From the NCBI GenBank assembly GCA_035544015.1, contig DATKIP010000076.1:128299-192298 (forward strand): a DNA stretch of 64,000 bases. The letters run 5' to 3'. Both the position numbers and the translations under genes were made by a program. The notes under the pieces were generated by a model. That model did not search any database. It was not told the DNA's origin and saw only the letters and a program-made list of their open reading frames with translations. The first letter of the stretch is position 1. Every line of letters begins with the position of its first letter. Of this stretch, positions 1 to 20,100 are shown piece by piece. The stretch comes from Candidatus Saccharimonadia bacterium (GTDB lineage: Bacteria; Patescibacteriota; Saccharimonadia; UBA4664).

Positions 1-3000
1 ACTATCTCGATACCGCAGGCCACAGCTTCCCGACCCAAGACGACCCTCAAAAACTATTCCTTGCCCGAACCGACACCAGTTTGACCCAAAATTGGGGCAC
101 CGGCTCGCCGGTGCCGAACGGGCCCACCACTGGCTATATGGTCCGGTGGACGGGGTCGTATACGCCAACCCTTACCGGCGCATACAACTTCAAGGCTACT
201 GTCAGCGATGGCGTACGGGTGACCGTTGGCAGTACGGTCGTCCTCGACGCCTGGAGCGACCATGAGCCGGCCGCCACTGTGGGCCCCACAGTCCCCGTTA
301 ATCTAACAGGCGGCACTTCCGTGCCGATTACAATCGACTATTACCAAAATTCGGGAACGAGCCAAATCTCGCTGCTAGTCAACAAGCCCGACAGCACCGG
401 GGCGTATGTGCCCGTGGAAACGACGTCGCTCAGTCCCCAGGCTCAGGTGCTCCCGGAAGGCTGGGCTCTAGGCATTGATGCGGATGGCAATCTTAAATAC
501 GACTACGCCGTTATCGGGCTAAATAGTGTCACGCTGCGCGACTCTACCGGCCAAACCCACGAATATAAATTCATCAACAACGGATTTACGCCGCCGACCG
601 GTGAAATCGGCCATATGGTCCGCAACGGCGACAGCACCGTCACCTTCCAGGATGCTGACGGCCGCACCTACGTCTTTAACCCCAACGGCACGCTCGCATC
701 CACCACCACGCCAACGGATGATCTACATCCGACAGCCCTCAAATACACCTACGCAGGTTCGCCGGCTCGCCTTACCCAAATTACTGATGGCGTAACTTCA
801 AATCGCTGGGCCAAGATATATTATGCGGGCGATACCACGAACTGCCCGAGCCTTACAGCAGGATACACGGCCTATACTGACGCGAGAGTTGTCGGTATGA
901 TCTGCGCTATTGCCACCTCCGATGGTACCCAGTCCACGCCAGTAAACGTGCTTAATGGGAATGTAACGCGCCTCTCCTACCAAATAACCACGCATCCCGA
1001 CAGCACGACCGCTCCGAATCTAGCTCGTATCGAAAAGCCCGGAACCGACTATACCGACTACGGCTATGACTCACTTGGCCGCGTCCTAAGTGTTCGCGAC
1101 AGACTAGCTAGTGATGCCGTTTACGCAACCCCCCAAGTGCGCCTGCCGGACGGCACCGAATTGACAACGATACAGTACGACGCTCTAGGGCGTGTATCGA
1201 ACGCCACATTGCCTGCCGCCACAGCTGGCGCAGTGAGGATCGCTCATACCTACAACTATTACACCGGCCAAACCCAAATGCATCTTACGGGCGCCACGGA
1301 GCCAAACGGCTTTAGCCGTAAAATCCTCTATGACGCGACCCTTCGAACTACCAACGATTACGATGTAGCAAACCTCAACACTCAGAGCGAATGGCACGGC
1401 AGCAAGGATCTTGTGCTCTCAACAACCACGCCCGCCGGGCTTAAATCCACAACGCTCTACGATTACGCCGACCGGCCAATTGACCAATACGGACCAGCAC
1501 CCAGCGCCTGGTTCGGTTCCGACCGTAAACCGCTGCCAGGAAACGAACCCGTTTCGGGACAGCCATACGTGAATCTTATTGCACATAAGCAAACTGGATA
1601 TGACGAGTCGACAGTAGCGGGAAATAGTGCGCTCAAGAGCCTAGCTGCCACATATTACAATGTCGATACATACACTAATGGCACCGGGCAGCCCGCCAAA
1701 GCACTCTTTGGCACTCCCAAGCTGCACACGACAGGTATAGGCGGCGCAAACGGTGACATCAATAAGACGTGGGCAGGTACGCCGCCGTTTACACCCGACG
1801 CCGCACCGGGTGGCGGCACCTACGGCTGGGGTACCCGGCTTAGCGGATATGTACACTTCACGGCGGCCGGCAACTACACCTTCCGAATCCAATCAGACGA
1901 TGGGGTGCGGCTCTGGCTTGATGACACCCTAATCATTGACGACTGGACCGATGGCAGCTCGCGCTCGCATGGAATGGTGGCTGGATACACAGGCTTTAAC
2001 AATACAGCCGACTCCTACCACCGTATCCGGCTCGATTACTACAACAAGGCCGTGGGCGGAGTCCTTAATACCGATGCCGCACTAACGCTCTACATGACCC
2101 CGCCCGCGGGCGGCGAAACGAGCGCTCTCGGCACCCTGCTAAACCCCGGATATGGTCTAGCTACAACGAATACCGTCTATGACTCCAACGCCAACGTTGG
2201 CAATAGAACGACAACAACCGGCTACGGCCCGAACCCCGAGCTTGGTTTGGCCCAAACCTCCATTGTTGACCCCACGGGACTAGCCCTCACTACAAACTAC
2301 ACCTACGAAGCCCAAGGGGCGGCTGGCAGCTTCTTGCGGCAGCTTACCAAAACGTTGCCAGGAGGCAATACAACCAACTACGCCCACTACGCAGCCACTG
2401 ATCCGCCGCGCGATAACCCATGTACGGTACCGGTTGAGTCCTACAACCAGGCGGGACTGCAAAAATTAATCACGCAGCCTGACCCTGACGGTGCCGGCCC
2501 ACAAACGCCAGTTACCACAGAGACGATTTACGACAATACCGGACATGTAGTAGCTTCCCGCTACAATACCGAGGCATGGAAATGCACCACCTACGACGCG
2601 CGCGGACGCGTCACCCAAGTTGCCACTCCCAGCCAGCCGAACACTCCGCACGTCACTCGTTCCGCGCGCACCGTCACCAACAACTGGTCTGTCGGCGGCA
2701 ATCCTTTGGTGACAAGTGTCGCCGACTCCACTGGAACGATTACCACTACCGTTGACCTACTGGGCCGCATAACGAGCTACACTGACGCCAAGAGCAACAC
2801 AACGACATACGGCTATGACATATTCGGCCGCCTGACCTCGAAGACGACCCCTTACGGCACCGAAAATTACGTTTACGATAACAATAACCGCCTCACCGCG
2901 CAGAAACTGGGCACAACCACGCTCGCAACCCCAAGCTACGACGCCTTCGGTCGCTTGACCGGCGTGACCTATCCCACGGTCGTGTCCTCGTTCCCGGTCA

Positions 3001-4526
3001 GCACCATGACCATGGCCGTTTCTCGCGACAATCTTGGAAGGGTCAATAATTACGATTACACTGTCGTGGACCCCGCCACATTCACAGTTAAGCACGTTAT
3101 CGACAACATCGCATTCAGCCAGTCGAGCCAAGCCGTCTCGGGCACCGAAGCGGGGGCCGCAAAGACCTATACCTACGACAAAGCCGACCGGCTCACCACC
3201 GCCACGCTTGGCACCCACAGCTTTAGCTACAGCTTCGGGGCTCCGACAGCCTGCACGGGAACCTATAACGCCAACGCCGGCAAGAACGCCAATCGCACGA
3301 GCCAGGTACAAGATGGCGTCACCACCACCTATTGTTACGACAATGCCGACCGCTTAATTTCCAACACAGCAAATGGTGGCGCCAGTGTATCCGCCCACAC
3401 CTATGACGCACACGGGAACTTCGCGACACATGGGATCGATGGCTCTAGCGGCGGCGGCAATACAAAGATTGAATACGACTCGTCGGACCGCGCCGTCTAC
3501 ACATCCGATCCGGGCACAAACACTACCAATATCCGGGATGCACAGGATCGCCTGCTTACGATGGATGATTTCTGGCACAGTGATTACGGCTACTCTGATC
3601 CGGGCGATACACCTGATTTTACCCGCGGAACAGCCGGCTACGTACAAGAGGCATACATCCGGCTTATCGGCGGCGTGCTCTTAACTAATCGCTTGGGCGG
3701 AAGCGGGCAGCTCGACGGCCAAAATGTTTCGATGCCTAATCTGCATGGTGATGTTTTCGCTATAGCCAACGGCACCGGATTGCTCAGACAGGGGAAGTAC
3801 CCCAACTATGGCATTTTCCAATACACACCATTCGGAAGGGACCTCACGGGCGTTGATGGCTCCGAAGCCCCCGACAATGCTATGGGAACAAATAAATTCA
3901 CCACGGTGGGTGGGTTTGGTAAGTTAACCGAGACGGGCAACACATCACAGTTTGTCTTCATGGGCGCCCGCCTCTACGACGCTTCCCTCGGTCGCTTTGC
4001 TCAGGTCGATCCGATAGACGGCGGAACCGAAAACAATTACGTCTATCCGCCGGACCCAGTCAACAACTTCGACCTGAGCGGTACAAACGCATGGGATACA
4101 GCAGGCACAGTTGTAGGAGTTGGCGCGCTCGCGGTCTGCGTCGTAGCAAGCGCAGGAGCCTGCGGAGTCGCGCTGGGCGCCGCTACGGTAGCGGGTGCAG
4201 CGATCGCAGGCATGGCTACCTGGCAAGACACCCATAATTTCTGGCTTTCTGCAGGCATAGGGGTAGCATCCGGCGTTGCTGACCGGCTAAGTGGAGGCCT
4301 CTGGAAAACAAGCTCAGTCTTTAGGGCCGGCGTATTAAGGCTCGGGGCGAAATATCAAAGCAAGGTAGTAACAAACATGAGAGCCGCTAAACTCGGTGCG
4401 AGCTACATTGGCGGGTTGATCGTAAACAAAGCTGCAACCTCGACAATAAGAGGCGTCTATGACGACTGGTGGCTATGGAGCAGGAGTAGGCGGCCCGATT
4501 ACGTTGGGCTTACAATGATAGCATGA
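1..4526 (+). CDS. Rhs/YD-repeat polymorphic toxin, 5'-truncated at window edge; two PA14 domains, YD repeats, RHS core ending RxYDxxxGRFxxxDP...PVNNFDLSG, then ~147-aa Gly/Ala-rich hydrophobic C-terminal tip
   Basis: Frame is open back to nt 3, so the gene starts upstream of the window. PA14 signatures: GYMVRWTG...DDGVRV and GYVHFTAAGNYTFRIQSDDGVRLWLDD. YD-repeat motifs: YTYDKADRL, YCYDNADRL, YTYDAHGN. RHS core motif: RLYDASLGRFAQVDPIDGG. TGA stop at 4524-4526. Confidence 0.85.
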   Translation, partial: YLDTAGHSFPTQDDPQKLFLARTDTSLTQNWGTGSPVPNGPTTGYMVRWTGSYTPTLTGAYNFKATVSDGVRVTVGSTVVLDAWSDHEPAATVGPTVPVNLTGGTSVPITIDYYQNSGTSQISLLVNKPDSTGAYVPVETTSLSPQAQVLPEGWALGIDADGNLKYDYAVIGLNSVTLRDSTGQTHEYKFINNGFTPPTGEIGHMVRNGDSTVTFQDADGRTYVFNPNGTLASTTTPTDDLHPTALKYTYAGSPARLTQITDGVTSNRWAKIYYAGDTTNCPSLTAGYTAYTDARVVGMICAIATSDGTQSTPVNVLNGNVTRLSYQITTHPDSTTAPNLARIEKPGTDYTDYGYDSLGRVLSVRDRLASDAVYATPQVRLPDGTELTTIQYDALGRVSNATLPAATAGAVRIAHTYNYYTGQTQMHLTGATEPNGFSRKILYDATLRTTNDYDVANLNTQSEWHGSKDLVLSTTTPAGLKSTTLYDYADRPIDQYGPAPSAWFGSDRKPLPGNEPVSGQPYVNLIAHKQTGYDESTVAGNSALKSLAATYYNVDTYTNGTGQPAKALFGTPKLHTTGIGGANGDINKTWAGTPPFTPDAAPGGGTYGWGTRLSGYVHFTAAGNYTFRIQSDDGVRLWLDDTLIIDDWTDGSSRSHGMVAGYTGFNNTADSYHRIRLDYYNKAVGGVLNTDAALTLYMTPPAGGETSALGTLLNPGYGLATTNTVYDSNANVGNRTTTTGYGPNPELGLAQTSIVDPTGLALTTNYTYEAQGAAGSFLRQLTKTLPGGNTTNYAHYAATDPPRDNPCTVPVESYNQAGLQKLITQPDPDGAGPQTPVTTETIYDNTGHVVASRYNTEAWKCTTYDARGRVTQVATPSQPNTPHVTRSARTVTNNWSVGGNPLVTSVADSTGTITTTVDLLGRITSYTDAKSNTTTYGYDIFGRLTSKTTPYGTENYVYDNNNRLTAQKLGTTTLATPSYDAFGRLTGVTYPTVVSSFPVSTMTMAVSRDNLGRVNNYDYTVVDPATFTVKHVIDNIAFSQSSQAVSGTEAGAAKTYTYDKADRLTTATLGTHSFSYSFGAPTACTGTYNANAGKNANRTSQVQDGVTTTYCYDNADRLISNTANGGASVSAHTYDAHGNFATHGIDGSSGGGNTKIEYDSSDRAVYTSDPGTNTTNIRDAQDRLLTMDDFWHSDYGYSDPGDTPDFTRGTAGYVQEAYIRLIGGVLLTNRLGGSGQLDGQNVSMPNLHGDVFAIANGTGLLRQGKYPNYGIFQYTPFGRDLTGVDGSEAPDNAMGTNKFTTVGGFGKLTETGNTSQFVFMGARLYDASLGRFAQVDPIDGGTENNYVYPPDPVNNFDLSGTNAWDTAGTVVGVGALAVCVVASAGACGVALGAATVAGAAIAGMATWQDTHNFWLSAGIGVASGVADRLSGGLWKTSSVFRAGVLRLGAKYQSKVVTNMRAAKLGASYIGGLIVNKAATSTIRGVYDDWWLWSRSRRPDYVGLTMIA

Positions 4527-4792
4527 GCAAAAGAACGACATGCTACTGCGGAAAACCATACGCCCCTCTGGACGGCAGATTCTTCAAACTAGGAGGTCTT
4601 GTGATAATCGCTGCAATCGCACAATGGATAATCACCGGTCCGGACATAGCCCATTACAGGGCCTTCGGTGGATTCCTTGCGGTCCTCGTAATAATGCTGG
4701 GATTTCTCGTCGTGGCAACTGTGGTAAGGCTGCGTCAGGGGCATACCATTTTCTGTGCGATATGGGATGGAATTCGGTCAACGGTTCTGTAG
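4523..4792 (+). CDS. small 2-TM membrane protein, putative immunity protein for the Rhs C-terminal toxin
   Basis: ATGA overlap with the Rhs stop suggests translational coupling. Hydrophobic segments GGLVIIAAIAQWII and FLAVLVIMLGFLVVATVV. Immediately 3' of the toxin tip. Confidence 0.5.
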   Translation: MSKRTTCYCGKPYAPLDGRFFKLGGLVIIAAIAQWIITGPDIAHYRAFGGFLAVLVIMLGFLVVATVVRLRQGHTIFCAIWDGIRSTVL

Positions 4793-4820
4793 GGATTAAG
4801 AGTATTTAAGGAGAGTCTGA

Positions 4821-5090
4821 ATGCAAAACCCATTGGCGCATGTCCCCGAAGAGAAGGCACAGAAGGAGCTGGTTCGGTTCCTGATCATAGGCTGGATAGC
4901 TGCGGTCGTAGCATTTGCTGTGTTCGGCTGGGCGTTCATTGTCGCGCTCGGTTGCGCCAGCCGATGCTTAATATTGAGTTGGCATACCGGTAATAAGGAA
5001 CGCTCAAAAGCTTGGCTTTATAAGCTGGCCAGCATATTGCTGCTAATCGTATCCATCTACGAGCTCTACCTGGTGGTCCACCAGCCCTAG
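4821..5090 (+). CDS. small 3-TM membrane protein (second immunity candidate)
   Basis: Strong SD (taaggagag) 8 nt upstream of the ATG. Hydrophobic helices. AT-richer than the flanking sequence. Confidence 0.5.
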   Translation: MQNPLAHVPEEKAQKELVRFLIIGWIAAVVAFAVFGWAFIVALGCASRCLILSWHTGNKERSKAWLYKLASILLLIVSIYELYLVVHQP

Positions 5091-5091
5091 C

Positions 5092-5691
5092 ATGATAAAA
5101 GCTCCCGAATTCTACCAAATCTTCAAGCAGCACGACGAGCCACTAAAGCAGGCCGGCTTTGCCCGGCAAGGCCGTCACAAATATAGCCGCAACGGCAATA
5201 CGCTCCAAATAATCCTCGGCAAATGGAGTTGGACCGAAGACGAGGGCTGGGATTTCTTCATCCGCATCACAGACCTAGCCTACCCGGCCGAAGGACACCC
5301 TCATCAACCATCCACAGACGTGACTCCCGCAACGCTCGTCTCGCAAAAGCTAATCGACCCAAGAGCGATTGATGCCGCATACAAGGCATATGCCGCCGAA
5401 CACAAAAATCTGTACGGGAATATCCCAAACAGAGCGTTCGTCTTCTACGACGCCGAGCATCTCGGTAAAATTCTGGACCTGTTCCTATCCGCTATCGTTC
5501 AGGCAGCCCACAACTGGGATACCTTCCGCAACGAGGAACGAAAGAAGCCCCGCGCCCCCTTCCGTAAGCACACGGCCGAGGAGCTCCAAGCTATTGAAGA
5601 CCGGATCGAGCGCGACCTGCGGTCGGCTGGCCTCCAAATGGAGTTGGTCACTCCGCCTAAAAAGACCAAGTCGGCCAACCCACCGGGTTGA
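5092..5691 (+). CDS. hypothetical protein in toxin-immunity operon (possible immunity/orphan module)
   Basis: ATG is 1 nt after the preceding stop. 199-aa ORF with protein-like composition. No motif recognised with confidence. Confidence 0.45.
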   Translation: MIKAPEFYQIFKQHDEPLKQAGFARQGRHKYSRNGNTLQIILGKWSWTEDEGWDFFIRITDLAYPAEGHPHQPSTDVTPATLVSQKLIDPRAIDAAYKAYAAEHKNLYGNIPNRAFVFYDAEHLGKILDLFLSAIVQAAHNWDTFRNEERKKPRAPFRKHTAEELQAIEDRIERDLRSAGLQMELVTPPKKTKSANPPG

Positions 5692-5787
5692 TTCCAGATG
5701 CCGCTAATGGTAAAACCAAACCAGATAGTTGTGAGCGTGGAGACCTTTTTGAGTACTTGCAGGTACGAAGCGAGGTGCAAACACTAT

Positions 5788-5822
5788 CAATAGAAAACGG
5801 GCTGAAGCCCGTTTTCTATTGT
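5788..5822. terminator. perfect 15-bp stem hairpin (caatagaaaacgggc-tgaa-gcccgttttctattg) between convergent genes
   Basis: Perfect inverted repeat seen directly in sequence. No strong U-tract on either side, so function as a terminator is inferred. Confidence 0.4.
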
Positions 5823-5841
5823 GACGGCATCAGAGCCCTAT

Positions 5842-6279
5842 CTAGATCAAATGGTTGTGCCGAAAGCTGTAGCACCCTTTCGCCGTCACAATAATATGAT
5901 CCCGCACGGGCATGCCAAGCAAGAGACCCGCCGCTACGAGCTGCTGGGTGGCCGATATGTCTGGCTGGCTCGGGCTGCACTCGCCAGAAGGGTGATTATG
6001 GGCCACGATTATAGATGCCGCCCGGTCAATAATTGGACCGGCAAATACTTCACGGGGGTGCGTGAGGGCCACATCAAGTAGCCCTATCGTAACAACGCGC
6101 CGGGCAATAAGGCGCATCGCACTGTCCAACGAAAGGCATACGAAGTACTCCTGCTTCTTGTCTCGAAAATAATCCAAGTACGGAAGTACATCCTGGGCAG
6201 CGTGCATCGGCCTGGCACTTTGCTCATGAGGTATAGTTTGACAGAACGGACAGGGAATCCCATCGGCGGTTTTCAGCAT
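5842..6279 (-). CDS. radC: RadC-like JAB/MPN domain protein
   Basis: JAMM motif HNHPSG followed by PSxxD and DHIIV. HPREVF motif. Typical RadC C-terminal domain. Confidence 0.8.
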   Translation of the reverse strand: MLKTADGIPCPFCQTIPHEQSARPMHAAQDVLPYLDYFRDKKQEYFVCLSLDSAMRLIARRVVTIGLLDVALTHPREVFAGPIIDRAASIIVAHNHPSGECSPSQPDISATQQLVAAGLLLGMPVRDHIIVTAKGCYSFRHNHLI

Positions 6280-6286
6280 AGCATTT

Positions 6287-6376
6287 TATAAACAAACTGT
6301 TTATACGGCATTGTTTTGAATGTATATGCAATCCCAAATATAAACAAGTCGTTTATATAACGATCTGTTTATATTT
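6287..6376. promoter_or_regulatory. operator-like palindromes TATAAACA-N3-TGTTTATA and TATAAACA-N4-GTTTATA plus a third half-site TGTTTATA, in the divergent radC/xre promoter region
   Basis: Read directly: tataaacaaactgtttata at 6287-6305, tataaacaagtcgtttata at 6340-6358, and tgtttata at 6366-6373. Confidence 0.45.
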
Positions 6377-6390
6377 CCTACGCTACAGGC

Positions 6391-6618
6391 ATGAGTAACA
6401 CACAAGAATCCAAGCAACTTATGGCCTTTGGCCGCAGACTAGCTGATGTACGGAAAAGCCGCGGGCTAACCCAGCAGCAGTTAGCAGAAAAGCTAAGTAT
6501 AAGCCTCGTATCCATCGGCTACATCGAAACAGGCAAACGCTGGCCGCGACTGGTAACCCTGCACCGGATTAGCGCTGCATTAGGCGTACGCCTCGAAGAA
6601 CTCTTTAAGGGGCTGTAG
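6391..6618 (+). CDS. XRE-family helix-turn-helix transcriptional regulator
   Basis: HTH signature RKSRGLTQQQLAEKLSISLVSIGYIETGKRWP. 75 aa. Confidence 0.8.
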   Translation: MSNTQESKQLMAFGRRLADVRKSRGLTQQQLAEKLSISLVSIGYIETGKRWPRLVTLHRISAALGVRLEELFKGL

Positions 6619-6818
6619 CCGACAAGCAACGTGCCAAGCGGCCATTTGGGAACACTTCCCTGCCGGCGCTCCATAGGGGATAATAGCAACAATACATTAG
6701 GAATCGTCATGAGTATCATGCCCTCTCACATCCAGTGACTGCCCGGCCGTAATGGCTAATCCTTCAGCATATTTCTGCTGTAAATAATTAGCAGCCATGA
6801 GCTGCTGAAGGATATAAC

Positions 6819-7724
6819 ATGTCAACACGATATTTCAATCACCGAGTCCAAAAAGCCCGACAATTCCTTGCTCAACGCATGTCCGGCGACACGCCAGAAC
6901 ATCCCGGGCTAACAACCTCATTTTGGAATTTACTCGAAAAAATTAAGCAGGATAGGGAAGCAGCGCTTGCCTTAGCCTACTCGCTCCTGGATACTTCGGC
7001 ACCATCCGAGCGCTTCTTTGCCGTTGTTTTGCTGGGTAAAATCTTCAACCCCACCGAGCGGCATCAGCGCGCCGAAGCCCGCCATATGATCGCAGTCTTG
7101 GCGGCCAGGGCCGCCCGCGAACGACACCCAGCTATCCTCACGCAAATCGGTTACGCCCTCGGCAAGCCGTATCTTCGTGAAGCCGTCCGGCCGCTCGTCA
7201 AACTGTCCCGCCATCCACACGAAGACGTTCGGTATGCCGCCACAGGTTCAATCGTGTCGGGTATTCATGAGCGGGCGCCAAAATATGCCCTAGATCGGCT
7301 ATTTGAGCTCATGCGCGATCCCGACCCAGACGTGCGCAATTGGGCCACTTTTGCCGTCGGGACACAGTTGGACATCGAAGCTAACAATAGTGACGCCATC
7401 CGCCAAGCGTTGCTCGACCGAACTCGCGACCGTCATTTTGAAACCCGCGCCGAAGCCTTTCGCGGCTTGGCTAGGCGAGGCGATCGCCGCGGAGTGCTAC
7501 CCTTAAAGCACTGGCTGGAACGCCAAGACCAGCAGGGCAAAACGATTTGGACTTGGGAGATCGAAGCCGCCGGCATATATGGCGATCCGATCTTTTATCC
7601 CGCGCTAACGAGCGTTGCCGAGTGGTGGAGGACAGACCAGCCAGTCATGAGCTGGGCACTGGCTCGCTGCCATCCCGATATGGAGATTCGGGACAGAACA
7701 TTGCTCGAAGACCAACTGTACTAA
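6819..7724 (+). CDS. HEAT/PBS-lyase-like repeat protein
   Basis: Repeated DP(D/N)xxVRxxAxxALG-type units (DPDPDVRNWATFAVG, HEDVRYAATGSI). SD aagga 7 nt upstream. Confidence 0.65.
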   Translation: MSTRYFNHRVQKARQFLAQRMSGDTPEHPGLTTSFWNLLEKIKQDREAALALAYSLLDTSAPSERFFAVVLLGKIFNPTERHQRAEARHMIAVLAARAARERHPAILTQIGYALGKPYLREAVRPLVKLSRHPHEDVRYAATGSIVSGIHERAPKYALDRLFELMRDPDPDVRNWATFAVGTQLDIEANNSDAIRQALLDRTRDRHFETRAEAFRGLARRGDRRGVLPLKHWLERQDQQGKTIWTWEIEAAGIYGDPIFYPALTSVAEWWRTDQPVMSWALARCHPDMEIRDRTLLEDQLY

Positions 7725-7840
7725 GCTTGCATTAATGTACTACTAATACTACAATAAATACCAAGAACATGAGTACGTTAACAGTTCGGCTAAGCACAAA
7801 ACACAAGCCCAAATTGCAGTACTCATAGTACAATAAAGTC

Positions 7841-8050
7841 ATGACACCAGTGCGACCAAGATTCCAAATCAACGCGGCTCCTGAAATACTCAACGAGGCC
7901 AAGGCCATTGCCTATAGTCGCGGGCTAAGTCTGACGGAATTTGTACTGCAAGCGCTCGCTAAAGACGGGAATGACAAGCTTAAAAAGCTCGTCGAAAAGG
8001 ACCTGGCTAACCGCACCCGGCCGGGCAATCCCTCTAAACCCAAATTCTGA
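7841..8050 (+). CDS. ribbon-helix-helix DNA-binding protein, DinJ/RelB-antitoxin-like (no cognate toxin seen)
   Basis: RFQINAAPEILNEAKAIAYSRGLSLTEFVLQAL matches the beta-strand plus two-helix RHH pattern of DinJ/RelB. Confidence 0.45.
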   Translation: MTPVRPRFQINAAPEILNEAKAIAYSRGLSLTEFVLQALAKDGNDKLKKLVEKDLANRTRPGNPSKPKF

Positions 8051-8138
8051 AAAAGCCATAACTTAGCCGAATTGCTACATTTCGCGAATGTTCGCTGAAA
8101 CTTGTTTTGATGGCAAATTACGGTAAGCGAGGGTAGAA

Positions 8139-8312
8139 ATGGGCAGAGTTAAAGGCGCAAAGAACAAAGAGAAGTCCCCTGAAATCTTCAGCATGACGAC
8201 AGACGATCGCATCACTCTCCTAGCCAACATTATCGTCGACGCCATCGCTGATAAGGAAACTCGAGAAGCCATTGACGCGGCCATGGCTAAAGAAGCCCAA
8301 GAGAAGCAATAG
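8139..8312 (+). CDS. 57-aa hypothetical protein immediately upstream of the recombinase (possible RDF/accessory)
   Basis: ATG preceded by gcgagggtagaa. Ends 11 nt before the recombinase start. Below the 60-aa cutoff of the ORF track. Confidence 0.3.
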   Translation: MGRVKGAKNKEKSPEIFSMTTDDRITLLANIIVDAIADKETREAIDAAMAKEAQEKQ

Positions 8313-8323
8313 GGGAGGGGAAT

Positions 8324-10033
8324 ATGCCGTCATTAGCCAACAAGAATGCCGTAGCCGCAATCCGAGTATCCACCGAGAAACAAGGCCGAGACGGCGATTC
8401 GCCCGAAGCTCAAAAAGAACAAATCGAACGCTATGCCGCCACCCAAGGCATCACAATCAAACAATACTTCGTATTTCTGGAATCTGCTTCCAAAGACCAG
8501 CAGCCAGTCCAGCCGGCCATCGACTACTGTAAGAATCCCAGGAACGACATCCAGCTCTTTATCATCAAATCCATCGATCGCTTCACGCGCGGTGGCTCAC
8601 ATGCCTATGGCGAGCTAACCGCCCAGCTCGACCATTGCCGGGTCAAACTCGTGGACATCTACGGTGTCATTAGCGGCCAAGAAATTAACACCCTCGATCA
8701 CCTCGGCTTCGAATACAAATGGAGCAAATACTCACCCAGCAAAAAATCGGAAATCCTCGAAGCCGAACGCGCCAAAGATGAACTCCGCGACATCATGAGC
8801 CGCATCATCGGCGCCGAAATCCGCTACACCCAAATGGGCTACTGGATGCGCCGTGCACCGTACGGCCTCATCAGCGAAAAAGCCGAAACCAAGCATGGCA
8901 AACGATGTGTGCTCAAGGCTCATCCCACCGAATCCAAGTACATCCTCCAGATGTTTGAGCTAAGCGCTAAGGGCACCCTCCATGACGAAGAAATCGTAGA
9001 CAAGCTCAACGAACTTGGCTTCAGAACCAGAGTGAAGTATATTCGCGACCAAAATGATAGGACTAAGGTCATTGCCAAAAGCGGGGGCAACCCGCTAACG
9101 GTGAAGGCAATGCACAAGTTACTTCGCAACCCCATCTACGCCGGCATCAACGCCGAGAAGTGGACAGGGGACAAGCCCATTAAGTGCGCCTTCCAAGGCC
9201 TCATCTCCGTCGATCTCTTCAATCGCGCCAACAAAGGCAAGAAGGTAATCGTTGAGAGCGCCAATGGCGAAATAGCCATTAGTACCAAACGACCACCCGA
9301 GCATCTGATTAACAAGGGTAAGCGTTATCCTGACTTTGCTTTCCGTTATCTACTTTGCCCCGATTGCCGTAAGCCACTCGTCGGCAGTGCTTCCCGTGGC
9401 AAATCCGGGAAGTACTATCCCGCCTACCATTGCGCACATCGTGGGCACTACTACCGTATACCTAAGCAGGAGCTGGAGGATCGAGTCGCCGAGTTTATCG
9501 GCAACCTTACCGTCTCTAGCGATCACCTCGATGCCGTCATGAATGCCGTCTCTGCTGAGTGGCATCTGCGCAACCAAAGCCAGCTCCAAGAGCTGGAGGG
9601 CATCGAGGAGCGCATTGCAGAGCTAAGAAAAGATGCTGTCGCCACCATGGACAAGATTCGCGTATTGAACTCACCAACCGCCCTTAAATTTATGGAGGAA
9701 GACCTCGTGAGAATAGAACAGCAAATCGAAGCCCTTACCGACGAGAAGGCCAAGAAAGAAGCCGAGAAACCGCACGAAATTAGCAAAGTCTTGGGAAGGG
9801 TCCGATATTTCGTGGAACACCTCGATAAATTGATCCTCCAACAGATAGACCCGATCAAAAAAGCCCAGCTTTTCGGCGTCATTTTCGACCAAATCCCAAC
9901 TGTCGATGAAATAAAATGTGGAACACCAAAAACACCCCTGTTTCCAGGAGTGAATGGCATCTTTGCGCTCGCAAATATGAATAAAGACTCTATGGTAGTC
10001 CCACGGGGAATCGAACCCCGGTTGCCAGGATGA
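8324..10033 (+). CDS. large serine recombinase (resolvase-type catalytic domain + recombinase domain + zinc ribbon + coiled coil)
   Basis: Catalytic motif AAIRVSTEKQ. Zinc ribbon CPDCRKP...YHCAHRGH. Long C-terminal coiled coil. SD gggagggga upstream. The last ~13 codons are the reverse complement of tRNA-Glu. Confidence 0.85.
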   Translation: MPSLANKNAVAAIRVSTEKQGRDGDSPEAQKEQIERYAATQGITIKQYFVFLESASKDQQPVQPAIDYCKNPRNDIQLFIIKSIDRFTRGGSHAYGELTAQLDHCRVKLVDIYGVISGQEINTLDHLGFEYKWSKYSPSKKSEILEAERAKDELRDIMSRIIGAEIRYTQMGYWMRRAPYGLISEKAETKHGKRCVLKAHPTESKYILQMFELSAKGTLHDEEIVDKLNELGFRTRVKYIRDQNDRTKVIAKSGGNPLTVKAMHKLLRNPIYAGINAEKWTGDKPIKCAFQGLISVDLFNRANKGKKVIVESANGEIAISTKRPPEHLINKGKRYPDFAFRYLLCPDCRKPLVGSASRGKSGKYYPAYHCAHRGHYYRIPKQELEDRVAEFIGNLTVSSDHLDAVMNAVSAEWHLRNQSQLQELEGIEERIAELRKDAVATMDKIRVLNSPTALKFMEEDLVRIEQQIEALTDEKAKKEAEKPHEISKVLGRVRYFVEHLDKLILQQIDPIKKAQLFGVIFDQIPTVDEIKCGTPKTPLFPGVNGIFALANMNKDSMVVPRGIEPRLPG

Positions 10034-10068
10034 AAACCTGGTGTCCTAACCGTTAGACGATGGGACCA
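9994..10068 (-). tRNA. tRNA-Glu (anticodon UUC)
   Basis: Reverse complement folds as a cloverleaf. Acceptor stem GGTCCCA/TGGGACT. D-arm GTCT-AACGGTTA-GGAC. Anticodon stem CCAGG/CCTGG with loop TTTTCAT (UUC). T-arm CGGGG-TTCGATT-CCCCG. Encoded CCA at the 3' end. Confidence 0.8.
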
Positions 10069-10122
10069 TATCATTTTTTGAACTGGTAAATACTACCATA
10101 TTGTGTACCCTCTAGTATAGAC

Positions 10123-11534: not shown

Positions 11535-11557
11535 CATCATACCGAACAAATTCCGAA
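11535..11557 (+). promoter_or_regulatory. conserved motif CATCATACCGAACAAATTCCGAA (copy 1 of 3)
   Basis: Near-identical 23-mer also found at 13998-14020 and, reverse-complemented, at 50021-50040. Lies 22 nt upstream of the GT2 start. Confidence 0.35.
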
Positions 11558-11578
11558 TATGCAATAATACTCAGGCAC

Positions 11579-13997: not shown

Positions 13998-14020
13998 CAT
14001 CATACCGAACATATTCCGAA
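13998..14020 (+). promoter_or_regulatory. conserved motif CATCATACCGAACATATTCCGAA (copy 2 of 3)
   Basis: Matches 22 of 23 positions of copy 1. Lies in the divergent intergenic region between 13958 (minus) and the GT2 gene. Confidence 0.35.
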
Positions 14021-14166
14021 GATTCAAGCCCAGCGGTAAACTACCGGATTCCTATCATACCGCCCACACTGCATCCCGCATCAAGTCTTGAAATTCTCCC
14101 TCCCAACCCATCTCCCTACATTCCCGACCACCCCGCCCTGTAATTTTGCACAAAAGACCTCGCAGT

Positions 14167-15033
14167 ATGACTCTGGTAACATACGTACCCATGAGCACCC
14201 CCCTTGTATCTGTTGTTATCCCAACAAAAAACAGCATCCGTTTCCTCAAGGCCTGTCTGGCGTCCGTGAAAGAGCAGTCCTATAAAAACGTCGAGACGAT
14301 CGTCGTTGATGGTCAATCCACAGACGGAACCATTGAGCTCTGCAATAAAATGGGCGCTAAAGTTTTACAATATGATCCCAAAGTCAAAAAAGGATTTTTT
14401 GACGCCCCCTTCCGCAGAAACTATGGAGTCGAAAACGCTGGCGGCGAGTTAGTCTATTATGTAGACGCGGATATGGAATTAACAAAGAATGTTATCCGTG
14501 ACGCCGTAGAGCTTTGCACTGAATCCGGCAGTGATGCTGTAATAATTCCAGAAGACTCATTCGGCATTGGGGTATGGGCCCAAGCCAAAAACCTAGAAAG
14601 AAGATGCTACTGGGGCGACGACTCGGTCGAGGCGCCTCGTTTTCTAAAGCGCAGCGTATGGGTGCAACTGGGAGGCCTCGATACGAGCCTGGGAGGGGGA
14701 GGAGACGACTGGGATTTATACCAGAAGTTGAGAGATCACGGCTACACTGTCTCCAGAATCAAATCGCTAGTCATGCACAATGAGGGGCACTTGAGCCTCC
14801 GAAAACTTATGCGAAAGAGATTTATGTACGGGCGGGATTCAGCTCGGTACATTTCCAAACGGCCGGCCGCCGGTGTAAAAAGCTACTTTCCCATACGAAT
14901 GGCATATTTGAGAAATTGGAAGCTGTTCGCCCGTCGTCCCGTCGACGCCGCAGCCTTTATGGTTATGAGACTGGCCGAATATTCAGCAGGGTTTGTCGGG
15001 ATACTTTACTCGGTACTAAAGGGGAATGCATGA
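14167..15033 (+). CDS. GT2 family glycosyltransferase (start uncertain: TTG 14146, ATG 14167 or ATG 14191)
   Basis: VSVVIPTKN start and DGQSTDGT motif. YVDADMEL DxD motif. Confidence 0.75.
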   Translation: MTLVTYVPMSTPLVSVVIPTKNSIRFLKACLASVKEQSYKNVETIVVDGQSTDGTIELCNKMGAKVLQYDPKVKKGFFDAPFRRNYGVENAGGELVYYVDADMELTKNVIRDAVELCTESGSDAVIIPEDSFGIGVWAQAKNLERRCYWGDDSVEAPRFLKRSVWVQLGGLDTSLGGGGDDWDLYQKLRDHGYTVSRIKSLVMHNEGHLSLRKLMRKRFMYGRDSARYISKRPAAGVKSYFPIRMAYLRNWKLFARRPVDAAAFMVMRLAEYSAGFVGILYSVLKGNA

Positions 15034-15995
15034 AAGCTACGCAATTTTGGAAGAATAAAACTGTTTTAGTTGCCGGCGGCTTAGGATTCGTGGGTGCCCA
15101 TGTCATAGAGGAGCTCCTGCGGCAAGACGCAAAAGTAATCTGTCTCTACCGCGGGGGGGATACGAAATTTTTCCACAAACGCGGGCTAGACGTATCGAAT
15201 CTTACTTTCCAAAAGATAGATTTGCTTGATTCGCACGGGGTTAATTTAGTCACCCAAAATGCTGACGTTTTAATTAATTGTGCCGCCCTCGATGGAAACG
15301 CAGAATTTAAGCGAAAAAATGCCGCCAAGATACTCGATTCCAATTTAAGAATCGTCTCCAATCTTTTAAACGCCGCGGTCGAAAACTCCATCAGTGACGT
15401 GGTCCTCTTAAGTTCGGCGGAGGTGTACCCGGGACAAGTTAGTAATCCTATTCGCGAAAGTGATGACTATAGAAAAAATTGGGACTATACCGATAATGGC
15501 TATGTCTTATCCAAGAGGTTTTCAGAGATCATGGGAGAGGCCTTCCGATCTCAATACGGCATAAAAATCTATCATCCCCGTCCCGCAAATATTTATGGCC
15601 CCCGAGATCATTTTGGCTCTGCGATGAATCGCGTGATCCCCAGCATGATTAAAAAAATAGCCGACGATCAAGACGTCGAAATTTGGGGTGACGGCAGTCA
15701 AGTCAGGAGCTTCGTATACGTCACTGATGCCGCAAAAGGCATCTTGGGAATGGTCGAAAATGAATTTGACGATTATTTAAATATCGGGTCCCCCGAAGCG
15801 ATTTCGGTACTTGAGTTGGCAAACCGGATAGGTGATCTTCAGGGAAAAAAAGTCAAAGCAAACCTGGACACGAGCAAGCCTGGCGGGTCGGCGCGGCGAG
15901 TCCTAGACGTAGCAAATCATCTGAGGATGACCGGCGGAGAATATACGGATCTCAATAGCGGCATCGATCAAACCATTCAATGGTATCTTGCCTAG
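15030..15995 (+). CDS. NAD-dependent epimerase/dehydratase (extended SDR)
   Basis: Rossmann motif TVLVAGGLGFVGAHV. Catalytic YVLSK motif. SD aagggg upstream. ATGA overlap with the GT2 stop. Confidence 0.8.
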   Translation: MKATQFWKNKTVLVAGGLGFVGAHVIEELLRQDAKVICLYRGGDTKFFHKRGLDVSNLTFQKIDLLDSHGVNLVTQNADVLINCAALDGNAEFKRKNAAKILDSNLRIVSNLLNAAVENSISDVVLLSSAEVYPGQVSNPIRESDDYRKNWDYTDNGYVLSKRFSEIMGEAFRSQYGIKIYHPRPANIYGPRDHFGSAMNRVIPSMIKKIADDQDVEIWGDGSQVRSFVYVTDAAKGILGMVENEFDDYLNIGSPEAISVLELANRIGDLQGKKVKANLDTSKPGGSARRVLDVANHLRMTGGEYTDLNSGIDQTIQWYLA

Positions 15996-15996
15996 T

Positions 15997-17178
15997 ATGC
16001 GGGTAATTTTTTTCTCGTTTGGAATTTTAGAATACGGCGGAGGGTTAGAGAATTACCTCATTGCCACCGCGCCGGATTTAATACGTGGTCGGTATGTTGA
16101 CGAAGCCTCGATCATTACGGCTACACCTCGGCTAAATGAGGCCCTTCAACATCTGCTAACGTTGTATTACTTTAGGAAGCATTCAACCTCGACGATATAT
16201 CGAGAGAGCGCTAAAGACATCAAAATAAGGTTAGGAGCAGTCAAATATTTGCAGGCAGATTCCCTTCGGGATTTGCGGGAAAGACTGCAAAAGTACGACG
16301 TCGTATATACAAAAAATGAGATCATCGAACTGGCTATATTAAAACTCATTGGCTACAAGAACCTACCCCCGGTGGTGGTCGGGGCACACACCCCCGTCTA
16401 CTTTACGAACGCCCCCTCTGTGTCCGCAAAGCTTCATAATTTGATCTACGGCGGGTTTATTTATCGGTACCTGCTAAAAGGATCTGCCTACATCAAATGT
16501 AATAATCAAGAAGATATGGCCTTTGTTCAAAAAAAATTAAAATACAAAAACGCGGTGGTGATACATCATGGATTCGATATTACGGAGGGCTCGGTGCGAC
16601 GCAATCAAACTGATTCTCTCAATATTCTATTCGCCGGACGTCTTAGCGAGGCCAAAGGGGTCGATACGCTCGAAACTATAATTCAAACGCTCAGCAAGCA
16701 TGAACGATTCGAAGCATACAGATTCCGGATAGCAGGGAGCGGCGACGAAAATCTAGAATCCATAGCCGAATCGCTCGCAAGAAACTATCCCAACGTAGAA
16801 TATCTCGGACATGTCCCCGTCGCAGATATGCGGACATTATACGAATGGGCCGATATCTCCCTCATCCCGTCTCGATATGAGACGCTAAACAAGATAGCAG
16901 TTGAAACGGGCTTGGCATCCAAGATAGCTATAGCCTCGGATATATCGGGCCCTAGGGAAGTGATCGAAAATGAGAAAACGGGTTTTCTCGTCAGTCCAGA
17001 ACCAAAAGAATTCGCCGAGAAGATAATTGCATTGGACACTTTACGAAAGACGAATCGTGCAAAATTCAACTCGATTGGTCAAGCGGCAAGAGAAAAAATA
17101 AGCCGAGAATTTAACAAAAATCGCTCGTATATAGAATTGTCTGAGTTGCTTGAGAAGGCACGAGCTAATAGGCGATGA
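15997..17178 (+). CDS. glycosyltransferase family 4
   Basis: C-terminal GT-B motifs EAKGVDTL, RIAGSGDE, ETLNKIAVETGL...GFLV. Starts 2 nt after the epimerase stop. Confidence 0.75.
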   Translation: MRVIFFSFGILEYGGGLENYLIATAPDLIRGRYVDEASIITATPRLNEALQHLLTLYYFRKHSTSTIYRESAKDIKIRLGAVKYLQADSLRDLRERLQKYDVVYTKNEIIELAILKLIGYKNLPPVVVGAHTPVYFTNAPSVSAKLHNLIYGGFIYRYLLKGSAYIKCNNQEDMAFVQKKLKYKNAVVIHHGFDITEGSVRRNQTDSLNILFAGRLSEAKGVDTLETIIQTLSKHERFEAYRFRIAGSGDENLESIAESLARNYPNVEYLGHVPVADMRTLYEWADISLIPSRYETLNKIAVETGLASKIAIASDISGPREVIENEKTGFLVSPEPKEFAEKIIALDTLRKTNRAKFNSIGQAAREKISREFNKNRSYIELSELLEKARANRR

Positions 17179-20100
17179 ATAAGAAGAATTTATACCTGGT
17201 CGGCTTCATCATACTTCTGAACATCCTGGTTTATCGAGTGTGGTTTCTTGGGTTCGGGATAATGACTCATGGGGATTGGAGCTATGTCTCTCGCGTAAGC
17301 GCCGATACGCTGAGAATCCATTATTTTTCACTTTGGCTGTCAGACTATTCGTTTGGGCGCATTCTCGTCGACGTTGGGCAGGCCCCCACCTATGCATTTT
17401 ATGGGTTCTTGTCAGCTGCCCTGCAGATCGATTTTGCCCTGGCCGAAAGGCTCGTGCACCTCTGGCCAGCAGTGCTCCTCACTCCGCTCGGGGCCTTTTT
17501 TCTGGTATGGAAGATTTTTAAAAACCGAATCGCAGCCATACTGGGCGCCATCATATATTCCTGTAATACCTATTTTTTAATCCTACTGACCGGGCATCTA
17601 ACGCTCGCGGGCGCATATGCGCTTGCCCCGTGGGTGCTGCTCGCATATTTAGAGTTCTTAGAGAAGGAGAGCCTTCGTTATGGCATCTGGGCTGGCCTCC
17701 TGCTCTCGGCGTCGTCGGCCTATGAACCCCGAGCCGCATACATAATTGCCTGGATCCTCGTCTTCGCCGCCGCCGGCCAGGGCGTCGCAAAAATCATTGA
17801 TCATAAAAAAATTAACGAGATCATAAGCTATACGCTGCGCTCAATTATTCCGTTTGCCATATTCGGGCTGCTCAATTTCTTTTGGATTTTTGCTTTCACC
17901 AAAATCAACGGTGCAATTGGCGCGGATATTCTGTCGCGAGGGTTATTCGGAAATGCGTTTTACGACATTAATGAAGCCCTAACCCTGTTTCACCCCTTCT
18001 GGAACGGTGGACGACCAATACCATTTATTATTAACCACATCCCATTGTATTTCTGGCTGCTTCCCGTCGCCGCAACTCTCGGGATATTCTTGAATAAATC
18101 CAGAAGAACGATAATTTTCTTTGCCACACTTGGCATTCTGGGAATATTTCTAACAAAACAGGTAGACACTCCCTTTCCGCAGGCGTATCAATGGCTCTAC
18201 GCGCACTTTCCCGGCTTCGGTGCGTATAGAGAGGCGAGCAAATTCTACCTACTAATCGCGTTATCGTATACGGTTCTCATCCCCGGCGCATATATTGCGT
18301 TGAAGAAAATCGGCCATAAGTACCTCTCCCTAGGCTTTGCGGCAGCTCTCGCGAGCATTATGGTAGTAAACTTAGCTCCCATCATAAGCGGTACGATCCA
18401 GACCACGTTCGCAAGTCGTACAATCCCAGAGTCTTATACGGCTCTCAACAAATTGTTGGACGAATCGTCTTTTTCCAGGACGCTGTGGGCCCCCAAGGAC
18501 TCGCGATGGGCGCTAGACTCCGACATGCACCCGAAAGTAGGGGCAATCGATATAGCGCAATCCTCGTGGGTCGATTTCATCAAACGCACCGTGGATGGTA
18601 GCTACCTGACCACCGAGGAGCAGGCCATGGAGGTTTTCCAGAATCCGTTTGCACCCGAGCTTCTAGCGGACGGAGTCATTAAATATGTCGTAGTCCCGTT
18701 AAGGGATACTAAAAATGACGATGATTTCTTCATTAATTACGGCGATATCCGAAGCAACTACACCGATTTGCTCGATAAAATGCCGTTCTTAAAACGGGTT
18801 AATACTGGCATCAACGACATCGCACTCTACCAAAACACGAATGTTAAGCCCTATGTCTCAACCTTCAGCAATCTATATTCAATCCCGGGCATGCCAGCAC
18901 TCCAGGGATCGCTCAACTTTGCGAAACAGGCCCTAGGAGAGAAAGATTTCAACTTTGTGAGTGGCGAAGAGAAGACTTATGCTCGAAAGATAACGGACTT
19001 ATTTGGCACTTTCGAAGACATGCAACCAACTCGGGACCGCGAGCTTGCTAGCAAGGAGGACCTGAGGGGGTCAACGATTTATCGGCCAGCCAGATTTAGC
19101 GAGTACGAATATCGCGTGGCGGGGAATGAACTACAGATTTTGTCGCGAGATCTCAGAAAAAACCTAGGTGCAACCAGGGGAGTAGCCAACGCGGCTAGTT
19201 TTTCAATTATAAAACGGATAAATGTTGCACGAGAGCCCGACATATATCTGGATATTGACGGAAAAATTACAAAACTTAACGCGAGCGACAACCAGGAGCA
19301 TTATCTTGGGTCTAACGTTGAAAAAATTGGAGTCTACTCTGCCACGACAGGCAATAACGTCATCAACGGATCGTTCGAAAGCGGTTTATGGCAGGACAAA
19401 GTACAAGATTGCAATAATTACGACGGTAGTCCCTCGATATCCGTGAGACAAAGTTCGGTGGCTTCCGATGGAAAATACTCTCTAAATATGACGGCACAGA
19501 AACACATGGCCTGTACCGCCTCAGCGCCCTTACCAATTCGAGCAGATTTTTATCTCACAGCCATGGATTACAAAATACACAATGGTACCTACGCTGCGTA
19601 CCAGATCAGCAACTCGGAAACAAAGGAAGTCTTGGGAAAATATAACCTGCGAGCGCCCGATGATGCGTGGCGCACGTATGCCACGATTCAGGCTCGTCCC
19701 TCTGGGGCTACCAATCTCGGCGTTACTCTCATGGCAAGACCATCTGAGCAGCAGAGTAAGCTCGCGGAAACAAATTACGACAATGTAAAAATCGTTGGCC
19801 TAAAAAAGCTCGATTCTCTGGATTTTGGACAGAACCAATTCGAGCCCTTCCAGAGTGGCCCGACGGCGTATCGAGATCAGGCCTATACGTACGAGAACAT
19901 CGTTCCGAATGGTTCGTTCGAAAATGGGCTTTGGGAAAAAAATGTTGGCGATTGCGGCGCGTATGACGACAAGCCCAAGATAGGGATGAATATAAGTACA
20001 AAAGCGAGCGATGGTAGGCGATCCCTCGAGCTCCATGCTTCGCGGCACATTGCCTGCACCAGCGCCAATAATATCCCCATTGAGCCAAATGGGACTTACC

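Follow-up and report, generated by a model that had tools for sequence, protein, structure and literature searches.

Introduction

Does a recombinase gene that runs into a tRNA gene mark the edge of an integrated element, and how far would such an element reach? The question is posed by a large serine recombinase (LSR) gene that ends inside a tRNA-Glu gene in DNA of Candidatus Saccharimonadia bacterium (GenBank assembly GCA_035544015.1, contig DATKIP010000076.1, positions 128,299 to 192,298 of the forward strand). This stretch of 64,000 nucleotides (nt), here called the window and numbered from its first letter, lies on a metagenomic contig of 320 kb and had been the subject of an earlier note, which proposed that an element carrying the recombinase had integrated at the tRNA gene. 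Our analysis supports that proposal. The segment is probably (we put the probability at roughly 80%) an integrated, reduced copy of a Saccharibacteria tRNA-targeting integrative element that has the LSR as its integrase.

Serine integrases are the main tools for large DNA insertion, yet little is understood of the way in which they come to use new targets. Recourse to tRNA genes has hitherto been regarded as rare and unproven in these enzymes: in a survey of 2168 genomes, t(m)RNA genes were the site of 14 of 297 serine-integrase islands, a use described there as previously unreported and in need of experimental proof (PMC7192596).

Results

The recombinase is divergent yet complete

The LSR scores above the Pfam cut-offs for the Resolvase domain (PF00239, 35.7 versus 23.3 bits) and the Recombinase domain (PF07508, 27.2 versus 21.1 bits); a match to Zn_ribbon_recom stays below its cut-off (17.5 versus 25.3). 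The PHROG integrase family phrog_95 matches the protein with E=1e-37. From the N-terminus, the layout is a catalytic domain (with S16), a recombinase domain, a zinc ribbon into which a coiled coil is inserted, and a disordered tail that the tRNA gene encodes. R14, S16, D85, R86 and R89 are invariant among 62 homologs, as are C348, H369, C370 and H375, with C345 nearly so, and the window protein has every residue that is invariant in the family. The AlphaFold (AF2) model (predicted local distance difference test, pLDDT, 78.5) comprises the catalytic and recombinase domains, a beta-ribbon and a long coiled coil of two helices; beta strands at residues 353-380 are followed by helices 399-447 and 451-480, and residues 551-569 are disordered. 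Foldseek aligns the full-length model with serine integrase-att complexes at E about 1e-16 (best 3e-16) and with the N-terminal plus recombinase domains of phiC31 at E=1e-7. A phmmer search of PDB sequences gave no match, and a profile of the LSR family reached only the catalytic domain of TP901-1 in the PDB (E=3e-4). Judged by sequence and model, the window protein is a divergent yet complete large serine recombinase.

The recombinase gene ends inside tRNA-Glu

The open reading frame (ORF) of the recombinase crosses into the tRNA-Glu(UUC) gene at its CCA end. Codon M557 occupies 9992-9994, twelve further codons follow, and the TGA stop (10031-10033) is the complement of tRNA U35-C36-A37 in the anticodon loop. 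The shared sequence covers the acceptor 3' strand, the T-arm, the variable loop and the anticodon stem. The last codons of the recombinase had been described in the earlier note as the reverse complement of the 3' half of the tRNA; this is borne out, with an overlap of 41 nt and the stop on tRNA positions 35-37. The tRNA had been placed at 9994-10068, one position too far right (Table 1). It is intact, encodes its CCA and is the sole tRNA that ARAGORN finds in the window. A junction derived from attP and attB presumably lies inside 9993-10033.

Relatives with an empty site

A comparison with relatives lacking the insertion, suggested in the earlier note, proved informative. Three related loci (L083, L084 and L085; L-numbers are our handles for loci) have an empty tRNA-Glu(UUC) site in the same orientation, upstream of the flippase-GT2-GT4 genes that also follow it in the window. 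The right-hand synteny is the same, with 62-71% amino acid (aa) identity to the window over these three genes and 65-71% for the flippase homologs. No homolog of the LSR, RadC, XRE, HEAT or Rhs genes is found within 9-10 kb of the empty sites. Their left sides hold small ORFs and then pyrC and pyrD, 2-8 kb from the tRNA; these and the other left-flank genes were looked for in the window and none was found. The motif GAACyGGTAAATAyTAsCA in the spacer between tRNA 5' end and flippase gene is kept between the window and all three relatives. The comparison supports tRNA-Glu(UUC) as the integration target, of which the 5' part and the upstream spacer appear host-like; the spacer being host-like, the right junction would lie to its left.

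The composition of the segment is likewise distinct. GC content is 51.5% over 5842-9992, 63% in the right flank and 57% in the left flank (Rhs). The earlier description of an AT-richer segment between flanks of about 65% GC is right only in part: the right flank comes near that value, the left does not. GC content at third codon positions (GC3) lies between 0.53 and 0.66 in every gene of the stretch that begins with Rhs and ends with the LSR; the three genes to the right of the tRNA have values of 0.79-0.84. Windowed GC and codon usage, proposed as a check, thus gave one sharp break, at the tRNA (LSR 0.61, flippase 0.82); no break was located leftward, Rhs being equally low. We regard the region left of tRNA-Glu in this genome as accessory DNA. 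The empty sites, the GC3 break and a family of tRNA-abutting LSRs with mobile genes (below) all uphold the idea of an element integrated at tRNA-Glu.

Clades of the recombinase track their target tRNA

Homologs of the LSR number more than 1500 proteins, of which the best 120 are all ∼570 aa long and 57-76% identical. A scan of one genome per species (185,579 representatives) found a relative in 351 species; locus-level counts given here refer to the 80 best LSR loci among these. Nearly all of the 80 come from metagenome-assembled genomes (MAGs) of Saccharimonadia or Patescibacteria, and several genomes carry two copies. To the right of the tRNA lie conserved chromosomal clusters (histidine kinase, response regulator, rluB, der, pth), to its left variable genes. 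The C-terminus reads ...MVxPRGIEPxLPG in 19 of 19 aligned homologs. ARAGORN places the end of the LSR ORF inside an antisense tRNA in 55 loci; in ∼10 more the ORF abuts or reads through a tRNA that offers no in-frame stop, and in most of the remainder the contig ends at the tRNA. Eleven contigs stop no more than 35 nt past the LSR match, and six begin at most 150 nt ahead of the LSR. Assembly breaks at the LSR and tRNA are expected for a repeated or polymorphic element. Two loci (L047 and L066) have no tRNA after the LSR and were examined as possible attP forms; their downstream genes are all unique.

Most overlapped tRNAs are Glu(UUC) or Glu(CUC), with the same 41-nt overlap and TGA stop (47 tRNA-Glu loci). 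The other overlaps involve Leu(UAA) over 53 nt, Gln(UUG/CUG) over 30 nt and Phe(GAA) over 65 nt, and where the tRNA is Asn(GUU) or Lys(UUU) the ORF either adjoins it or continues through it. With the tail excluded from the comparison, the nearest-neighbour LSR has the same target amino acid in 56 of 58 cases, which shows that LSR clades track the tRNA that is their predicted target. The adjacent 75-nt tRNA-Glu genes (n=50) come in six T-stem versions, with fully complementary stems in 48, and these versions translate to the LSR tails RG..PR, RR..LR, PG..PG, RG..PL and RR..LL. The residues of the tail are, on this evidence, dictated by the tRNA and follow compensatory changes in its T-stem.

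A probable terminator within the recombinase gene

About 40 nt past the tRNA's 3' end, on the tRNA strand, a hairpin resembling an intrinsic terminator is embedded in LSR codons ∼535-543 (KTPLFPGV). Relative to shuffled sequences the tRNA trailer folds with z=-2.7 in the window and with z=-3.8 and -5.4 in two relatives. Over 44 Glu-type loci the hairpin region has a mean z of -4.05, compared with -0.09 for control windows in the antisense LSR body, and 36 of the 44 have a run of at least four T. Codon choice was examined at four-fold sites. In the body of the LSR gene, third-position entropy at conserved residues (n=102) averages 1.72 bits and is nowhere below 0.3; the corresponding values are 0, 0.81, 0.27 and 0.55 bits in codons 533-543 and 0.14 and 0 bits within the tRNA overlap. 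Because the hairpin fold, the low synonymous entropy and the tRNA overlap coincide there, we take ∼110 nt (roughly 9920-10033) to be under constraint at the nucleotide level. In the empty-site relatives, a terminator of their own comes directly after the tRNA. We conclude that the element would supply the 3' part of the tRNA and a replacement terminator, as predicted from its fold, both within the end of the recombinase gene.

Another hairpin, of variable sequence, separates the terminator from the tRNA 3' end, in the region of window positions 9965-9976 (trailer alignment columns 11-36). It is seen in many relatives, with a register that shifts by 1-2 nt between sequences, so that covariation is not countable; its mean z is -1.0, and z is below -1.64 in 32% of sequences versus 7% of control windows.

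The distal junction and a possible point of crossover

No distal repeat had been seen by eye in the earlier note, which held that the lack of a direct repeat of the tRNA 3' end anywhere to the left would speak against an element. Systematic searches of 1-9990 were likewise empty. They used a 29-mer with up to 3 mismatches, 12- to 21-mers with 2-5 mismatches, local alignment against shuffles, Rfam at E<=5 and a repeat finder, and no repeat of the tRNA 3' end was found in 1-9990 even as a 12-mer with 2 mismatches. No score rose above chance. The best local hit, 9928-9953 (score 25 versus a null maximum of 24), was rejected as a distal att site, since it lies inside the LSR gene and is the terminator hairpin.

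A displaced remnant of the tRNA 3' end was found in only two related loci, within a reach of ∼10 kb. In L045 it comprises 21 identical nt far to the left (87-107), which gives an element of 11.6 kb; in L016 it comprises 12-17 nt at 998-1014, directly after a (native) terminator hairpin, which gives 10.7 kb. Identity of both fragments to the intact tRNA stops in the T-arm. A displaced remnant would be free to decay, and the absence of a direct repeat is in our opinion too strict as a refutation. The T-loop reads AATCGAA in the window and at 42 of 50 occupied sites, and AGTCGAA at all three empty sites. We therefore place the crossover, tentatively, most likely in or near the T-loop, whose stems would offer dyad symmetry for an LSR dimer.

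Partial tRNA copies stand beside several LSR-linked tRNAs (L034:1860-2200, L037:11760-11966, L045:87-260, L081:11806-11844 and L050:4993-5016). Several of them contain GC-rich hairpin inserts, 16-120 nt long, that break the T-, anticodon- or D-loop. The inserts in L034 and L045, which belong to the same genome, are related.

Anatomy of the element

Relatives of the element have a recurrent organization. The order begins with RadC and a gene for a protein of 146-177 aa, both on the minus strand; a plus-strand XRE gene comes next, followed by genes for a KAP NTPase and for a ∼850-aa coupling protein that is VirD4/TraG-like. Towards the right end follow variable cargo, a gene for a 262-aa winged-helix protein, a small basic ORF, the LSR and the tRNA. 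The winged-helix gene is present in 67 loci, divergently oriented ∼300 nt upstream of the LSR, and the coupling protein (TrwB_AAD_bind, TraG-D_C) in 21. As an example of cargo, L045 carries a phospholipase D (PLD) family nuclease, Fic, Shedu and a DpnII-type restriction-modification system.

The window copy shares part of this plan (Table 1). The XRE regulator has homologs in 9 related loci by tblastn and in a 20-locus cluster, usually on the LSR-distal side, and homologs of the RHH-like gene lie upstream of the LSR in L007, L062 and L048. By these comparisons RadC is a recurrent gene and XRE a backbone gene of the element family. Of the cargo named in the earlier note, RadC, XRE and HEAT are confirmed by Pfam; the RHH assignment is not, its match to ParD being weak and below threshold. 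The inverted repeat between the divergent RadC and XRE genes is a candidate operator. The small basic ORF directly 5' of the LSR matches no protein family and is a candidate accessory or directionality factor.

Table 1. Features at the left end of the window and at the tRNA-Glu junction.
Feature	Position	Strand	Evidence or remark
PA14/Rhs polymorphic toxin, 2355 aa	1-4526; gene start ∼2.5 kb left of the window		Core ends near 4083
Three small ORFs after Rhs	4523-4792, 4821-5090, 5092-5691	+	First overlaps the Rhs stop (ATGA)
Perfect hairpin with 16-bp arms	5788-5821		Inverted repeat; terminator scan: 15 pairs, 4-nt loop
RadC-like JAB protein	5842-6279	-	Pfam RadC, E=2e-35; homologs upstream of the LSR in 6 related loci
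18-nt inverted repeat	6336-6376		89% complementary; between divergent RadC and XRE
XRE/Cro-CI type helix-turn-helix (HTH) regulator	6391-6618	+	Pfam HTH_3, E=7e-15
HEAT-repeat protein, 301 aa	6819-7724	+	Pfam HEAT_2, E=1e-14
Possible ribbon-helix-helix (RHH) protein, 69 aa	7841-8050	+	Sub-threshold ParD match, E=0.0075
57-aa basic ORF (MGRVKGAKNK...)	8139-8312	+	Directly 5' of the LSR; 14 related loci have a tblastn homolog in the same place
LSR, 569 aa	8324-10033	+	Pfam Resolvase and Recombinase
Intrinsic-terminator-like hairpin and U5	9923-9952 (hairpin 9952-9933)	-	Terminator scan
Dual-coding overlap, 41 nt	9993-10033	both	LSR codons 557-569 and stop / tRNA 3' half
tRNA-Glu(UUC)	9993-10067	-	ARAGORN; Rfam RF00005, 63.1 bits; alignment with three empty-site tRNAs
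Host spacer, tRNA 5' end to flippase gene	10068-10122		Motif common to three empty-site relatives

Three genes of this plan are missing from the window copy: the one that lies between RadC and XRE, and those for the coupling protein and the winged-helix protein, which most relatives have. A test for conjugative or mobilizable genes found no coupling protein, relaxase or type IV secretion system (T4SS) gene in the window element, and no relaxase or T4SS was identified in the related loci that were read. A defence-system scan of the window cargo returned only generic HTH and weak HEAT matches. The window copy is probably decayed, or else part of a larger island reaching the Rhs locus.

No homolog of the HEAT-repeat protein occurs in the 80 related loci, and this cargo is unique to the window copy. 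Its sequence is similar to that of the YibA-type 'putative lyase' of E. coli, with a match to NCBIfam PRK09687 (E=1e-26) that stays below the cut-off. Because of this likeness, and because yibA is the neighbour of rhsA in E. coli, the HEAT-repeat protein may by analogy be an orphan immunity gene and not a random passenger.

The segment described in the earlier note begins at 4523, to the left of what we can recognise as the element. The three small ORFs at 4523-5691 have no homologs in related LSR loci, the first overlaps the Rhs stop, and the second (orf4821) shows weak similarity to an ORF that follows an Rhs array in L093; for these reasons we assign them to the Rhs locus, where they are probably immunity or orphan genes and not cargo of the element. 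Between orf5092 and RadC lies a bidirectional terminator-like hairpin (5788-5821), and the genes leftward of it have no homolog in related LSR loci. If a left limit has to be guessed for the recognisable element, which covers about 5842-10033 (4.2 kb), this hairpin is the best candidate.

In L081 (1-850) and L005 (1-528) a second, unrelated large serine recombinase lies on the minus strand directly beside RadC, which suggests back-to-back or two-recombinase elements.

The Rhs locus and a glycan-synthesis cluster

The Rhs toxin has a variable Gly/Ala-rich tip after its conserved core, and its homologs in a metagenome scan are at most 44% identical. On the other side of the tRNA, window positions 14000-20500 form a second, stronger low-GC island (about 47% versus about 62%) inside a glycan-synthesis cluster with GT2, an RmlD-like epimerase, GT1 and a 1220-aa CBM_4_9 protein. 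The island probably represents a serotype-like cassette that has been swapped. Upstream of two glycosyltransferase genes, at 11535-11564 and 13998-14027, stand the copies (90% identical) of a 30-nt direct repeat, CATCATACCGAACAnATTCCGAAnATnCAA, which may be a shared regulatory motif.

Discussion

A model for integration

We propose that the recombination site carried by the element is formed by the last codons of the recombinase gene, a stretch that would copy the 3' part of the target tRNA. LSR dimers would bind this site on a circular form of the element and the tRNA gene on the chromosome. Cleavage of both DNAs would fall on a core of 2 bp, most likely within the T-loop or close to it, and rotation and rejoining would follow. 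The chromosome would retain the 5' part of the tRNA with its promoter and receive a new 3' part and a terminator from the element, so that tRNA-Glu would stay functional. The recombinase ORF would end wherever the antisense tRNA offers a stop, in this copy the TGA in the anticodon loop. The window copy, with neither a coupling protein nor a winged-helix gene and without a distal junction that we could detect, has therefore probably lost the capacity for precise excision.

A broader generalization is that a mostly Saccharimonadia clade of LSRs has specialised on tRNA genes, with at least six targets, and packs its attachment site, the tRNA 3' half and the terminator into the last ∼35 codons. 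We would give this proposal even odds.

Alternatives

Several observations weigh against an integrated tRNA-targeting element or against details of the model. Neither a distal tRNA remnant nor any other repeat was found in window positions 1-9990, and the extent and mobility of the element are unproven. An excised form or attP was seen in no dataset. Since the lower GC3 extends over Rhs as well, the LSR element itself is not delimited by the step in composition. The position of the crossover draws on two remnants and one T-loop nucleotide, from genomes that are phylogenetically non-independent. Finally, five relatives (L031, L034, L037, L050 and L081) hold remnants of the tRNA 5' half on the right of the intact tRNA, at distances of 70-450 nt, and such remnants are not foreseen by the simple model. 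The first of these points bears on the possibility of a composite island, 12.6 kb long or longer, in which the toxin and immunity genes of the Rhs locus are included, the LSR module forms the active end and the distal junction lies left of the window. In its favour, GC3 is low in all genes from Rhs to the LSR (0.53-0.66 versus about 0.8 rightward), Rhs, the small ORFs and the element genes are all absent from the three empty-site relatives, and no junction was found inside the window. We consider such an island unlikely, because this LSR is near none of the 38 loci with an Rhs homolog, none of the 80 LSR loci has an Rhs gene, and the two relatives that can be delimited span only 10.7-11.6 kb. 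Moreover, Rhs genes are often compositionally atypical by themselves.

The unusually high conservation of the LSR (57-76% identity), its uniform length of ∼570 aa and its constant place beside tRNA-Glu could also be those of a domesticated, vertically inherited chromosomal gene with a host role, e.g. in inversion or dimer resolution. Such a gene should not be absent from close relatives with the same locus, occur in 351 of 185,579 species representatives and sometimes in two copies, shift its target to five other tRNAs along the LSR clades, or sit beside variable, mobile-element-like upstream cargo on contigs of which 11 end inside the tRNA, and we think domestication very improbable. Even less credit is due to a remnant of a temperate phage. 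The LSR does match phrog_95, and XRE repressors and RadC occur in prophages, but no capsid, tail, terminase or lysis genes were found by PHROG and Pfam here or in the 10-kb upstream regions of relatives, which have a conjugative-type coupling protein instead; the 2.9 million contigs of IMG/VR contain a single distant homolog (35%), on a contig without a tRNA. An assembly chimera, two genomes joined at a conserved tRNA, would fit three observations: composition changes exactly at the tRNA, tRNAs belong to the conserved repeats, and 11 related contigs are broken at this place. Against this, the LSR was found on 3 contigs and the flippase on 4, with the same neighbour genes in each and from sources that include ENA and Logan, and the LSR-tRNA-host layout recurs in dozens of independent MAGs including closed genomes; a chimera is thus hardly believable. 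An integrated, reduced copy of a tRNA-targeting element accounts best for the empty sites together with the family-wide overlap.

Significance

Searches of full-text literature on Saccharibacteria and Patescibacteria, in which subscription journals are mostly not covered and an earlier description may exist, gave no description of this LSR family; the large family of tRNA-targeting serine-recombinase islands in Saccharibacteria is apparently undescribed. If our reading is correct, it would be the first systematic tRNA-targeting LSR family and a natural series on the evolution of LSR target choice: hundreds of natural enzyme-target pairs over six tRNA species, the target being readable from the gene end. 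A protein tail, half a tRNA and a terminator on the same 110 nt would also make a clear case of RNA structure dictating a peptide. In practical terms, the family would provide ready-made integrases for conserved sites in bacteria of the candidate phyla radiation (CPR). Saccharibacteria have become genetically tractable only recently (Wang et al. 2023, as cited in PMC12857230), and tRNA-Glu-directed integrases could for this reason serve as vectors for them.

Comparison with known systems

The LSR has the same domain order as the large serine integrases phiC31, Bxb1, TP901-1, A118/LI, SprA, CcrAB and TndX, and like the serine integrases of phages and of ICEs (integrative and conjugative elements) its gene lies at the end of the element beside the junction. 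It is very distant from them in sequence, and differs in that the whole Saccharibacteria clade is tRNA-associated and the gene overlaps its target. To our knowledge, the sites used by characterised large serine integrases lie in protein-coding or intergenic DNA.

Integrative mobilizable and conjugative elements of monoderms resemble the relatives of the window element in the VirD4/TraG-like coupling protein, the plasmid-type small proteins and the winged-helix gene by the integrase. They differ in their transfer genes, as no relaxase or T4SS was identified in the LSR loci read and the window copy lacks both coupling protein and winged-helix gene. Chromosomal T4SS, and some relaxases near t4cp genes, have been described in Saccharibacteria in a study of Patescibacteria T4SS that does not mention recombinases or tRNAs (PMC12102498).

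Tyrosine-integrase islands at tRNA genes (Islander/TIGER, P4-like, tycheposons) share the position of the integrase at the tRNA 3' side, the restored tRNA 3' part, variable and often defensive cargo, empty sites in relatives and, in some copies, distal partial tRNAs. The tycheposons of Prochlorococcus, which use tRNA genes, almost all have a tyrosine recombinase, and an LSR in 27 of 937 (10.1101/2020.12.28.424599). The tyrosine-integrase islands differ from the present family in enzyme class and chemistry; the LSR copies are mostly without long flanking direct repeats, and the LSR ORF runs antisense through the tRNA.

Archaeal integrases of the SSV1 type have attP within the int gene and a tRNA gene as target. 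An attachment site inside the integrase coding sequence and a tRNA target are thus common to both systems. SSV1-type enzymes are tyrosine recombinases, however, and their gene is split into two large parts by integration, whereas at most the last dozen or so codons of the LSR gene would be exchanged, leaving it complete in the integrated state.

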